Below, one piece after another: positions 23,721-26,504 of a stretch of DNA of 64,000 bases. The stretch's first letter is position 1, and each line of letters begins with the position of its first letter. Made by a program: the position numbers and the translations under genes. The DNA lies in NCBI GenBank assembly GCA_037310415.1, contig CP147780.1, positions 224,001-288,000 on the forward strand. Direction: 5' to 3'. The notes beneath the pieces are model-generated. The model ran no database searches. It had not been told where the DNA came from and saw only the letters and a list, made by a program, of their open reading frames with translations. This DNA is from Candidatus Atabeyarchaeum deiterrae. GTDB lineage: Archaea > Asgardarchaeota > Atabeyarchaeia > Atabeyarchaeales > Atabeyarchaeaceae.

Positions 23721-24956
23721 TTAGAATCTGACTGGAGCAAAGAACAAGATCATAGGACCGAGTTTGAGTTTTCTTCTTTTCGATTTGACTTCACTCGTTA
23801 TTGCCAACAGAGTGTTTAGATGCTCATCCAGGCTGGAGACGGTTGCGTCTCTGTAAAGTGCGATTGTGTTTATCTTCTCTTCTCGTACGAGAAACTGTAT
23901 TATGATCGGGTTAATTGAATAGTCATGTTTCCAAGGGTTATTTGGTGTTAACACAATCCTTCTGCTTTCCGGGATTAGCTCTACTTTTGTTCTTGCCATG
24001 GCGACTTGATCGACTGTTTCTGCTGAGCCTTTGTCGTCTTTTCCCTCGAAGTGTTCTAGTGTTCTGCCAAGTATTCCCAGATTCTCAAGGTTCCCCGAAA
24101 TAGATTGGTTTGCCTTGGCTTCCTGTTCCTTGCTGGGCAATACTTTCAGGCACATGTATAGAGGCACGTTGTCTTCCTCTAGCCTTCTTGAATACACCTC
24201 GAGAGTCTTGCGGGCAACTTCAGAACATTTCTCGTTACTACTGACGACCCTTAGTGCTGGGCCGAATATTGTTGACGTGTTCTCTGGAGGTTTTGAATTA
24301 GATGCTGAATATGATGGTTGGAATCGTTCTTTTATCTCCTCGAGAGCCGTCTCATATACGTGCGCTGATCCCATCACGGTGAGCAAGTCTCCACGTGAAG
24401 AAGTGCCACCGAAATGCGCAGCGACTTCTGTCAGGAATACAGCATAACTTCCTGAGACATCTTCAGACCATGCCCTTGCAATATCGTTGCTTCGGATATA
24501 TTCGACTAGGTTCACCTTCCCTTTTATCCGCTCAAACATCACTATGTTTATGCAGGGCGGATCTGGACTCTTTATATCCTCAACTGGATTCCAGAACTGT
24601 GCGAAAGCGGATGAAGCAGTGTTCTTCAACGCATCACTTATTTGTTGTATTTGGTTGAACCCGAATCTTTTCCTCATGCACCAACCATAAGTGTATGTGT
24701 GCTCACCTCTCTCCGCCGTAGAGTACTGAGGCCAGTATTGCTGTTCGATAACTTGGGGAGATAAGCCAATGTAATCTTGTGGAGTGATGCTCCCCGTTCT
24801 CCAGTCAGTTAGATGAGCAATTCCACAGAGACATTCAAGCGTTCTTTGTCCCTTTCTTTCAGTGTATGCGATTGTTCCTTTCTCAACGACGGTGTTGACG
24901 ATCGAACGCCATGCCGTATCGACGTTTCTGTTTCTGGTTAAGAATGGTCCATACAT
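23721..24956 (-). CDS. Tandem-domain thymidylate-synthase / dCMP-hydroxymethylase-fold protein
   Basis: Domain 1 has YTYG, WNP, PPC135, RSND...D166 and SAHVY. Domain 2 is degenerate (VDQV..SRR..NNP..QFLVR..YR). Confidence 0.82.
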   Translation of the reverse strand: MYGPFLTRNRNVDTAWRSIVNTVVEKGTIAYTERKGQRTLECLCGIAHLTDWRTGSITPQDYIGLSPQVIEQQYWPQYSTAERGEHTYTYGWCMRKRFGFNQIQQISDALKNTASSAFAQFWNPVEDIKSPDPPCINIVMFERIKGKVNLVEYIRSNDIARAWSEDVSGSYAVFLTEVAAHFGGTSSRGDLLTVMGSAHVYETALEEIKERFQPSYSASNSKPPENTSTIFGPALRVVSSNEKCSEVARKTLEVYSRRLEEDNVPLYMCLKVLPSKEQEAKANQSISGNLENLGILGRTLEHFEGKDDKGSAETVDQVAMARTKVELIPESRRIVLTPNNPWKHDYSINPIIIQFLVREEKINTIALYRDATVSSLDEHLNTLLAITSEVKSKRRKLKLGPMILFFAPVRF

Positions 24957-24971
24957 CTTCTACTACCTCAT

Positions 24972-26504
24972 TTATTGAACCGTCTCTTCGCCAAGCAGAC
25001 GATAGTAAGGATGTGGTGGACGCGGCAAGACACCCATAGTCTTAAGAGCCTCGTCTGCAATGGCAGCTTCCGCTCCAGCCACATCGGGGAAGATGTTTTC
25101 CGCGTTCTTAATAGGTCCATATAGGTTCAAGTCAATTCCGAAGATTGTAGGAAGGGTGTAATCAAAGTCGAATCTGATGTCGTCGTGGTTTTTCACTGAA
25201 GAGTGAAGGTTGTGAATGCCTATGGCTGTGGGAAAACCGAATTGATTTTTCAAGATCCATGCCTGCTCAAGTGCAGACAGCGCACCTCCTCCGAGTCTTG
25301 GCACTCCTGGATCGATTATTGGCTTCTCAACGATATTCTTGAAAAAGCTCAAAGTCTCGCTTGTCTTCTTGTCTGACTCCTCAGCGGATTCCGCGTAGGA
25401 CAAGCAAATGGCATACTTTACTCCTCCGATCTCTTTGAGACTGCCGCGTTCCTTGTCGCTTTTAGTGATTATTGAGTTGTAGATTGTTCTATCCTCGATT
25501 CCAATGTCTTTGGCGAGTCTCAAACCGTGAATCCGAGCTTCAGCAAAGCTGGAGTCAACTATAATCGGTGAATCAGTCTGATCAACCGCGAATAGGAGGT
25601 ACTGTTCGATTGCCTCGACGGTTTGTCCGACGATGTGAACCATAACCGGAATGCTATAGTGTAATGAAAGTTCGTCTTGCTTGTGGATTAGCTCGGCTGC
25701 AACTCTCCTGTCAAAAGTCCCAGTCTTCACGTCTGAGACTATCTTGTCTTTTGTGTAGAAAATCGTACCAGCCATGACAGTTGGGTACTGTCCTCTATAT
25801 CCACCGAGCTTAACCCCGCATAGGTCATAGACTTGAAGCTCTGTCCCAGTAAACGTGAACATAGAGCCCAGCGCGTTTCTGAGTCTCCTCTTGTCTACCT
25901 CGGTCCTCTTCACGAACGCAGAAATCGCCCTTTTCCAGTCGTAGATTTCTTTCCGCTCAGGGGGATAAATCGGTTCCATTTCAAGAGGCTTCAGGTCCGA
26001 ACGGGCGAATAGTTCGTCTATCTTCACTCCAATTTTTTCGAGCGAAGTTTCATCGCTAAGATCTTCAACAGAGGCTATTTGCTGTTGGAAGCGCTTGACA
26101 TATTCTGATGGATTAGCCCCTCTAAAATACGTTGGAAGAAGTGTGGGAATAGTCCCTTGGCTACCTATCACCGTGTATTTGTCGTCTATCCCATTTGAGT
26201 GAAGCGCTTTGAATGTCTGCCCAGGCTCGTGACCTTTAACGCGTTGACCGCAGACCACGACATACCTGATCTCCGGGTTTGATATTATGTTTTGAATTAT
26301 CTTAGCAAGACCCTCGTTTTCAGTTTCGCAGAATCCAGCTATGGCCACGCGATCCGCTCTAGTTTTGATGACTTTGCCCGGAAGGTCGTAGGATCCGCAA
26401 GTCATCACTGCTATCTTGGCTCCTGGGTTACTGACGACATAGTCGCCGGGCAGCGGGGGCCACCTTGTTGCTTTCTTTGTATTATGAACCTGCTTTTCTT
26501 TCAT
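24972..26504 (-). CDS. Soluble MtrA-MtrH fusion (corrinoid protein + methyl-H4MPT methyltransferase)
   Basis: MtrA: WPPLPGDYVV, TENEG..IISNPEIR, CG..VKGH92EPGQ, RFQQQ. MtrH: GG..G.YPTVMAGTIFY, G.FDR, IYNSI, PIIDP, YGPI.NA. No TM anchor. Confidence 0.88.
   Translation of the reverse strand: MKEKQVHNTKKATRWPPLPGDYVVSNPGAKIAVMTCGSYDLPGKVIKTRADRVAIAGFCETENEGLAKIIQNIISNPEIRYVVVCGQRVKGHEPGQTFKALHSNGIDDKYTVIGSQGTIPTLLPTYFRGANPSEYVKRFQQQIASVEDLSDETSLEKIGVKIDELFARSDLKPLEMEPIYPPERKEIYDWKRAISAFVKRTEVDKRRLRNALGSMFTFTGTELQVYDLCGVKLGGYRGQYPTVMAGTIFYTKDKIVSDVKTGTFDRRVAAELIHKQDELSLHYSIPVMVHIVGQTVEAIEQYLLFAVDQTDSPIIVDSSFAEARIHGLRLAKDIGIEDRTIYNSIITKSDKERGSLKEIGGVKYAICLSYAESAEESDKKTSETLSFFKNIVEKPIIDPGVPRLGGGALSALEQAWILKNQFGFPTAIGIHNLHSSVKNHDDIRFDFDYTLPTIFGIDLNLYGPIKNAENIFPDVAGAEAAIADEALKTMGVLPRPPHPYYRLLGEETVQ

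Follow-up and report, generated by a model that had tools for sequence, protein, structure and literature searches.

A conserved MtrA-MtrH fusion and single-chain thymidylate synthase gene pair in Asgard archaea, a candidate corrinoid-dependent route to thymine nucleotides

To our knowledge, only two routes of de novo thymidylate synthesis are established, those of ThyA and ThyX. Both use methylene-folate. The corrinoid site of the methyl carrier MtrA is defined by a histidine acting as lower axial cobalt ligand, a hydrogen-bonded glutamate and a GAIPF meander (PMC4915002). A clade of proteins that fuse MtrA to the methyltransferase MtrH was previously described in Atabeyarchaeia and Freyarchaeia, where the fate of the methyl group was called uncertain and no acceptor was given (PMC11291895). 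Here we examine one such fusion gene together with the thymidylate synthase (TS)-family gene that follows it, in a 64,000-nt window (the whole stretch of DNA analysed; contig CP147780.1, positions 224,001 to 288,000) of the Asgard archaeon Candidatus Atabeyarchaeum deiterrae. The window lies within a complete genome of one 2.76-Mb contig.

We find that the two genes have stayed together in Asgard genomes while their surroundings changed, that the TS-family protein joins two TS halves in one chain as a pseudo-dimer sharing a single composite active site, and that this protein is the only visible route to thymidylate in the lineages that carry it. Our leading explanation, to which we give a probability of about 0.5, is that a methyl group would pass from a methyl-pterin to cobalt and from there to C5 of a pyrimidine nucleotide. 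Every chemical step of this route is our inference; what the analysis establishes is the anatomy of the genes, their conserved residues, their strict linkage, the status of the protein as sole TS and a predicted complex.

Layout and conservation of the gene pair

Both genes lie on the minus strand, with the fusion gene (P0001) first and the TS gene (P0002) downstream of it.

24972..26504 (stop codon included), minus strand: MtrA-MtrH fusion gene (P0001, 510 aa), from the open reading frame, Pfam MtrA and MtrH matches and ten aligned orthologues
24957..24971, minus strand: spacer of 15 nt, with a GAGGT Shine-Dalgarno-like motif at 24965-24969, before the TS start codon
23721..24956, minus strand: single-chain pseudo-dimeric TS-family gene (P0002, 411 aa), from the open reading frame, Pfam and NCBIfam matches and an AF2 model

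The original prediction, made from the letters of this DNA, had described two co-oriented genes 15 bp apart with GAGGT before the second start, and re-reading the sequence gives the same picture. It had further proposed that the first gene encodes a soluble MtrA-MtrH fusion with His92 in a GHEPGQ motif and that no mtrB-G genes lie nearby. Pfam matches and structure alignment agree with the former, and inspection of the locus flanks revealed no mtrB-G-like genes.

We then relied on a sample of 201 Asgard genomes, 18 of which, including this one, carry the long form of TS represented by P0002. The 17 other carriers encode full-length proteins with 37-67% identity to it and belong to five families (f1, f7, f10, f15 and f18). 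The original prediction had proposed a survey of co-occurrence, and its result is uniform: in 17 of 17, the gene immediately upstream and in the same orientation is a relative of the fusion (one of them split or partial, in a fragmented assembly), and the linkage persists down to 37-39% TS identity. In the other genomes of the sample, no match covering the whole fusion was found. The spacing of the two genes in orthologous loci ranges from a 4-bp overlap to about 60 bp, and the flanking genes vary between families, so that only the fusion-TS pair is kept. Likewise, about ten further metagenome contigs, judged by their matching lengths, appear to carry both genes, and a profile search with the long TS returned a handful of full-length relatives, of which all with a source name are Asgard. 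The 18 carrier genomes are relatives within one phylum and do not count as 18 independent events.

The two proteins, their predicted complex and their surroundings

The TS-family protein is twice the usual length and its features map to the window as follows.

24318..24956, minus strand: N-terminal TS half of P0002 (residues 1-213), holding the catalytic residues, from alignments and VIA-align
24552-24554, minus strand: codon of Cys135, in a PPC motif
24459-24461, minus strand: codon of Asp166, at the position of E. coli Asn177
24267..24317, minus strand: inter-half linker (residues 214-230), of low confidence in the monomer model and the main predicted MtrH contact
23724..24266, minus strand: degenerate C-terminal TS half (residues 231-411), from family scans of orthologues and a fold search
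23958-23963, minus strand: codons of Arg332-Arg333, within Ser331-Arg332-Arg333 of the C-terminal half

P0002 matches the Pfam family Thymidylat_synt (PF00303) over residues 73-213 (E 5.1e-15; 55.8 bits against a cut-off of 24.3). The model TIGR03283 covers residues 7-207 (E 8.4e-28) with 97.3 bits, below its curated cut-off of 174.55, and TIGR03284 reaches 51.1 bits, below its cut-off of 108.35. The N-terminal half aligns across the whole 201-position TIGR03283 model and keeps the PPC cysteine and the RSxD, YTYG and SAH.Y motifs. Cys135, in the PPC motif, aligns to the catalytic cysteine of solved TS structures. Together with Arg155, Ser156 and Asp158 (RSND, residues 155-158) it is invariant in the 17 long-TS orthologues, and the same half also holds Tyr90 and His199. 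Family scans and alignments therefore agree with the TS fold and Cys135 named in the original prediction, in which the double length and the pseudo-dimer architecture were absent.

In TS homodimers, a Ser-Arg-Arg motif reaches into the active site of the partner subunit. This Arg-Arg motif is lost from the N-terminal half of P0002, which reads AFAQFWNP, with AF at that place. The C-terminal half keeps an invariant Ser331-Arg332-Arg333 and has no cysteine (NP replaces PC) and no RSxD. Because catalytic residues and the Arg-Arg pair have been lost reciprocally between the halves, the single chain of P0002 amounts to a pseudo-dimer whose one active site is a composite, built from Cys135, Arg155 and Ser156 of the N-terminal half and Arg332 and Arg333 of the C-terminal half.

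Structural models are in line with this architecture. The AF2 model of P0002 has a pLDDT of 86.8 and a pTM of 0.91, with pLDDT below 50 at residues 214-225. Over about 198 aligned residues, its N-terminal half (model residues 2-218) superposes by VIA-align on TS, MilA and AfhB with Z 19-21.6 and a root-mean-square deviation of 1.9-2.6; the best structural matches are AfhB, a phage dCMP hydroxylase (Z 21.6), and MilA, which is a CMP hydroxymethylase (Z 21.2), with ThyA at about Z 19. The C-terminal halves of four divergent orthologues match TS models only (E 1e-4 to 4e-3). When this half of P0002 was modelled alone (pLDDT 87.3) and compared with 48,161 chains, the top seven matches were all of the TS family (Z 10.4-12.9), followed by the next at Z 5.1. 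Direct hhalign comparison of the two halves was weak, with a probability of 1.8% and E 0.027, and therefore the claim of a duplication rests on the family scans and the fold search.

Asparagine at position 177 of E. coli TS specifies uracil. The corresponding residue of P0002, Asp166, is invariant in the 17 long forms, and Asn occupies the position in all 15 short or fused TS aligned. The closest sequence match among L. casei TS entries is the N229D mutant (1njc). Compared with all stand-alone short TS, the long TS thus differs in the exchange of Asn for Asp at E. coli position 177, in its reciprocal active-site loss and in its docking linker. A second, distant clade of pseudo-dimeric TS of about 416 aa (P0030 and P0031) likewise has the cysteine in the N-terminal half and Arg-Arg in the C-terminal half; its specificity position is Asp in P0031 and Asn in P0030.

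The fusion protein, P0001, consists of an MtrA domain, a linker and an MtrH domain, and is without a C-terminal membrane anchor.

25974..26477, minus strand: MtrA (corrinoid-binding) domain, residues 10-177 (Pfam PF04208, E 4.9e-39)
26229-26231, minus strand: codon of His92, within the MtrA domain
25032..25838, minus strand: MtrH (methyl-pterin:corrinoid methyltransferase) domain, residues 223-491 (Pfam PF02007, E 5.3e-56)

Its GHEPGQ motif aligns with GHIVGQ/GHITGQ of the solved MtrA structures 5laa and 5l8x, making His92 the counterpart of the cobalt ligand His84. Likewise, Glu62 (in a TEN motif) and the GTIP loop (G117-T-I-P) match the glutamate and the GAIP loop of these structures. Ten fusion orthologues with 47-67% identity share invariant C59, E60, E62, N63, G91, H92, P94-Q96 and G117-P120. 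The MtrH domain matches the PDB structures of MtrH (8z9u, E 2e-39) and of the methylcorrinoid:tetrahydrofolate methyltransferase MtgA (6sj8, E 1.6e-36), with about 35-40% identity to both. Its Asp317 and Asn432 align to positions altered in deposited MtgA variants and are both invariant in the orthologues; judged from these variant sequences, they are the probable catalytic residues of the domain. The 2.76-Mb contig holds four MtrH matches and a single MtrA match, P0001 itself. A different MtrA-MtrH fusion, P0226, was observed at a contig end.

Modelling of P0001 with P0002 yielded an ipSAE of 0.83 (runs of 0.86, 0.80 and 0.83), against 0.00 for the highest-scoring of three controls. The ipSAE mark applied here is reached by 58 of 80 solved complexes and by 2 of 110 mismatched pairs. 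The runs share at least 65% of their contacts, and the pLDDT of the partners is at least 87. On the TS side, contacts come from residues 5-22, the N-terminal strand, and from residues 212-235, at the inter-half linker; on the side of P0001, they come from MtrH-domain residues 227-339 and 494-498. Binding of P0001 to P0002 is thus supported by the model. We know of no solved TS-MtrH complex, and therefore the model is unlikely to recall a known structure. The original prediction had suggested modelling the complex and measuring how close the MtrA cobamide comes to Cys135. The complex as modelled passes its controls, with the confident contact running through MtrH and not through MtrA. Because the MtrH residues of the interface precede the strand that bears Asp317, the TS would dock on the side of the MtrH barrel away from the pterin site, which would free that face for the tethered MtrA.

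Archaeal housekeeping genes flank the pair, namely argS, an aminotransferase, Nep1, an RNase P subunit and ribosomal proteins. Relatives with 62-65% identity, P0017 and P0202, come from Atabeyarchaeia-1, also Asgard. One metatranscriptome contig of 198 nt maps inside the fusion gene, at 25456-25652; none of the metatranscriptome contigs bridges P0001 and P0002, and they inform neither for nor against co-transcription or expression.

Thymidylate supply, the candidate route and its rivals

P0002 is the sole PF00303 match in the complete genome. ThyX (PF02511) was found neither in this genome nor in the sampled genomes of the five carrier families, and is present in 98 of the 201 Asgard genomes; no thymidine kinase was found in the complete genome. 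The question raised by the original prediction, whether carriers lack other thymidylate synthases, is thus answered by the absence of ThyX and of a second TS match. Because the long TS is the sole TS, with no ThyX and no thymidine kinase found, it is the only visible route to thymidylate in the carrier lineages.

No member of the cytidine/dCMP deaminase family (PF00383) was found in the genome. Two dCTP deaminase paralogues lie outside the window (G000:C1:577937-578488 and 1215571-1216092), both above the TIGR02274 cut-off, and a dUTPase-like gene is present, so that deoxyuridine monophosphate (dUMP) can be made. We also considered that the second paralogue converts 5-methyl-dCTP to dTTP, and rejected it: paralogue pairs occur in families f1, f16, f19 and others and do not track the long TS. 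FolA-type dihydrofolate reductase (DHFR) was found in none of the 18 carrier genomes. Mer or MetF, which reduce methylene-pterin to methyl-pterin, were found in 17 of the 18, and the exception is an assembly about 76% complete. Mer is above cut-off in f1, f7 and f18, and MetF is present in f15 (three of four genomes) and f10. The Wood-Ljungdahl pathway's tetrahydromethanopterin (H4MPT) branch is reported in this lineage (PMC11291895).

We suggest that both genes may form one enzyme system that makes the thymine nucleotide of the organism. The MtrH domain would take a methyl group from methyl-H4MPT (methyl-folate in MetF lineages) and load it onto the cob(I)amide of the MtrA domain tethered to it. 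With its N-terminal strand and inter-half linker docked on the MtrH barrel, the TS would bind a pyrimidine 5'-mononucleotide, and Cys135 would add to its C6. The activated C5 would then accept the methyl group from methyl-Co(III), followed by beta-elimination. The product would be dTMP from dUMP or, given Asp166, possibly 5-methyl-dCMP, and the pterin would be released as H4MPT with no need for re-reduction of a dihydropterin. This route would account for the invariant cobalt ligands and the exclusive co-occurrence of the two genes, for a one-site asymmetric TS able to dock one MtrAH, and for the altered specificity residue and the need for Mer or MetF. TsrM offers a precedent for the polar transfer of a methyl group from methylcobalamin to a carbon that is sp2. 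Core methionine synthases are a precedent for methyl transfer from a corrinoid protein to small acceptors (PMC7857596).

More tentatively, at somewhat less than even odds, we see in this pair a possible third mechanistic class of thymidylate synthesis, in which a TS-fold enzyme would receive an intact methyl group from protein-bound methylcobamide. Such a class would make thymine with no pterin oxidation, in contrast to ThyA, and with no use of flavin and NADPH, in contrast to ThyX.

TS is joined to an MtrA-like fold elsewhere too. About 100 proteins of 420-625 aa from the candidate phyla radiation (CPR) and DPANN combine an MtrA-like domain, a short TS and DUF4346 (PF14251) (e.g. P0028, P0180, P0182 and P0037; loci L046-L050, L054 and L055). 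On a Kerfeldbacteria contig, such a fusion is flanked on one side by genes for dCMP deaminase and a nucleotide kinase and on the other by those for thymidylate kinase and dUTPase; in that operon it evidently acts as the thymidylate synthase. These fusions point to a recurrent partnership of MtrA fold and TS, and not to corrinoid chemistry. If the third class exists, they would be degenerate variants of this partnership or relics of it. The archaeal DHPS-like protein model TIGR00284 likewise has DUF4346 at its end.

Short TS genes have neighbours of other kinds. In the virus-like contigs L059, L061 and L064, a short archaeal-type TS lies beside DNA polymerase, terminase or anaerobic ribonucleotide reductase. 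That short TS generally have corrinoid partners was considered and rejected, as the short TS of family f6 has no MtrA-like gene within 1.5 kb. In this family (e.g. G154:C7, G166:C2 and G102:C1) an MtrH gene stands at a steady 18-20 kb from the short TS, which is distant synteny and not an operon. At L058:666-3154, a short TS whose score exceeds the TIGR03283 cut-off has truncated genes for CdhD-like and CdhE-like corrinoid/Fe-S proteins 9 bp downstream of it. The 109-nt stretch upstream of an 82%-identical CdhD/E-like pair (L060) holds no TS C-terminus; the TS link at L058 is thus unproven and we do not count it as support.

Several observations weigh against methyl transfer through cobalt. 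Some of them suit an alternative in which P0002, as a classical ThyA-type enzyme, draws on methylene-H4MPT as one-carbon donor and reductant, MtrAH being bound or co-expressed for another reason, possibly pterin delivery, partitioning of the methylene and methyl pools, or supply of methyl-corrinoid to an acceptor such as core methionine synthase. The catalytic set of Cys135, Arg155, Ser156, Asp158, Tyr90, His199 and Arg332/333 is conserved, and the retained Asp158 (equivalent to Asp169 of E. coli TS, which contacts the pterin), Tyr90 and His199 are compatible with classical methylene transfer. Short relatives work without a corrinoid partner in viruses and other archaea, standing alone in virus-like contigs and Nezhaarchaeales. 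Of 98 CPR/DPANN fusions, only 3 have a histidine at the equivalent of His92, and more than 90 have a deletion of the GTIP loop. The presence of an MtrA fold with TS thus does not require His-on corrinoid, and the fold may have some other purpose. In the Asgard complex model, the confident interface joins the TS to the pterin-binding MtrH domain, with no confident contact between MtrA and TS. Likewise, P0031 of the distant clade has no MtrAH within about 6 kb, and fewer than 10 transcripts of mtr genes were seen in published metatranscriptomes (PMC11291895). The classical alternative, for its part, leaves the invariant cobalt ligands without a role, and explains neither the restriction of the fusion clade to the long TS nor the change of Asn to Asp. 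Published N177D/N229D mutants of TS reportedly have crippled dUMP turnover. The lack of a FolA-type reductase also speaks against it, though methanogens too lack FolA. We consider the classical alternative unlikely, yet deserving of serious attention.

Asp166 bears on a further alternative, namely that the TS-fold enzyme is a dCMP/CMP C5-methyltransferase or hydroxymethylase, with or without corrinoid. It would make 5-methyl-(d)CMP for a modified nucleotide pool, or for thymidylate by way of an unrecognised deaminase, and a cytosine-nucleotide product overlaps with both the corrinoid and the classical readings. The invariance of the Asp in 17 orthologues, set against the Asn in every short or fused TS examined, argues for it, as do the best match to L. 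casei N229D and the rank of AfhB and MilA just above ThyA, although these Z values differ by no more than about 2 units. However, P0002 is the only visible source of thymidylate, and no PF00383 deaminase was found that would turn 5-methyl-dCMP into dTMP, which also counts against a cytosine product of the corrinoid route. The dCTP deaminase and dUTPase-like genes allow dUMP to be made, and the second dCTP deaminase paralogue is not co-distributed with the long TS. We regard a cytosine-specific enzyme as quite improbable. Least of all do we expect the two genes to be neighbours through inherited gene order, with no functional coupling. In favour of this view, the carriers all come from one phylum, so that their genomes are not independent. 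Yet the pair alone is kept as flanks differ between families and spacing varies, the co-occurrence is exclusive, and the complex model passes its controls, so that we give mere inheritance very little credit.

Comparison with known systems

Taken individually, the fusion and the TS annotation are published or routine. In the literature searched we found no paper that links Mtr proteins or corrinoids to thymidylate synthase, and papers on these genomes and on Asgard thymidylate metabolism make no mention of an Mtr-TS link. If the corrinoid route is correct, it would settle which acceptor takes the methyl group from the Asgard MtrAH fusion, the question left by the earlier description of the clade (PMC11291895), and would explain why the biochemistry of archaeal-type TS has been hard to pin down. 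Even if the chemistry is classical, a single-chain TS with reciprocal active-site loss is undescribed in the literature searched, as is a TS bound, by prediction, to a corrinoid protein. The system consists of two soluble proteins and hence is directly testable.

The short methanogen-type TS of TIGR03283 shares with the N-terminal half of P0002 the whole length of the model and the catalytic motifs. In contrast, P0002 is twice as long, carries Arg-Arg in a dead C-terminal half, has Asp in place of Asn and has MtrAH as an obligate neighbour. T4 dCMP hydroxymethylase, MilA and AfhB, like the N177D/N229D mutants of TS, share with P0002 the Asp at the base-specificity position and a close structure. 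Those proteins are homodimers that use methylene-folate or flavin, whereas the genome in which P0002 is the sole TS is a cellular one.

MtrA and MtrH of the methyl-H4MPT:coenzyme M methyltransferase, the Mtr complex (5laa, 5l8x, 8q3v and 9qtp), and the soluble MtgA (6sj8) share with P0001 their folds, the histidine, the glutamate and the loop. Unlike the Mtr complex, P0001 is one soluble chain, and its sole conserved partner is a TS-fold protein, not MtrE and coenzyme M. The CPR/DPANN three-domain proteins likewise join an MtrA fold physically to an archaeal-type TS. Their TS keeps the Ser-Arg-Arg motif and the Asn, and they have no His, Glu or GTIP and no MtrH, whereas the Asgard pair has a complete corrinoid domain and pterin methyltransferase. 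Protists and plants also couple TS to a pterin-handling enzyme, in their bifunctional DHFR-TS; there the partner is a reductase acting to repair oxidised pterin, and here it is a methyl-pterin:corrinoid methyltransferase.

Three-component systems such as MtaBCA, or MtgA with its corrinoid protein, likewise combine a pterin-side methyltransferase, a corrinoid carrier and a third protein, here the would-be activator of the acceptor. The difference is that the third part here would be a TS-fold enzyme and the acceptor a nucleotide carbon nucleophile. For a second methyltransferase that takes the methyl group from methyl-Co(III), P0002 is the one conserved candidate. We know of no three-component corrinoid system with a TS-fold third component. 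On the evidence of its sequences, we class the Asgard module as a putative three-component corrinoid methyltransferase system whose third component has the TS fold.

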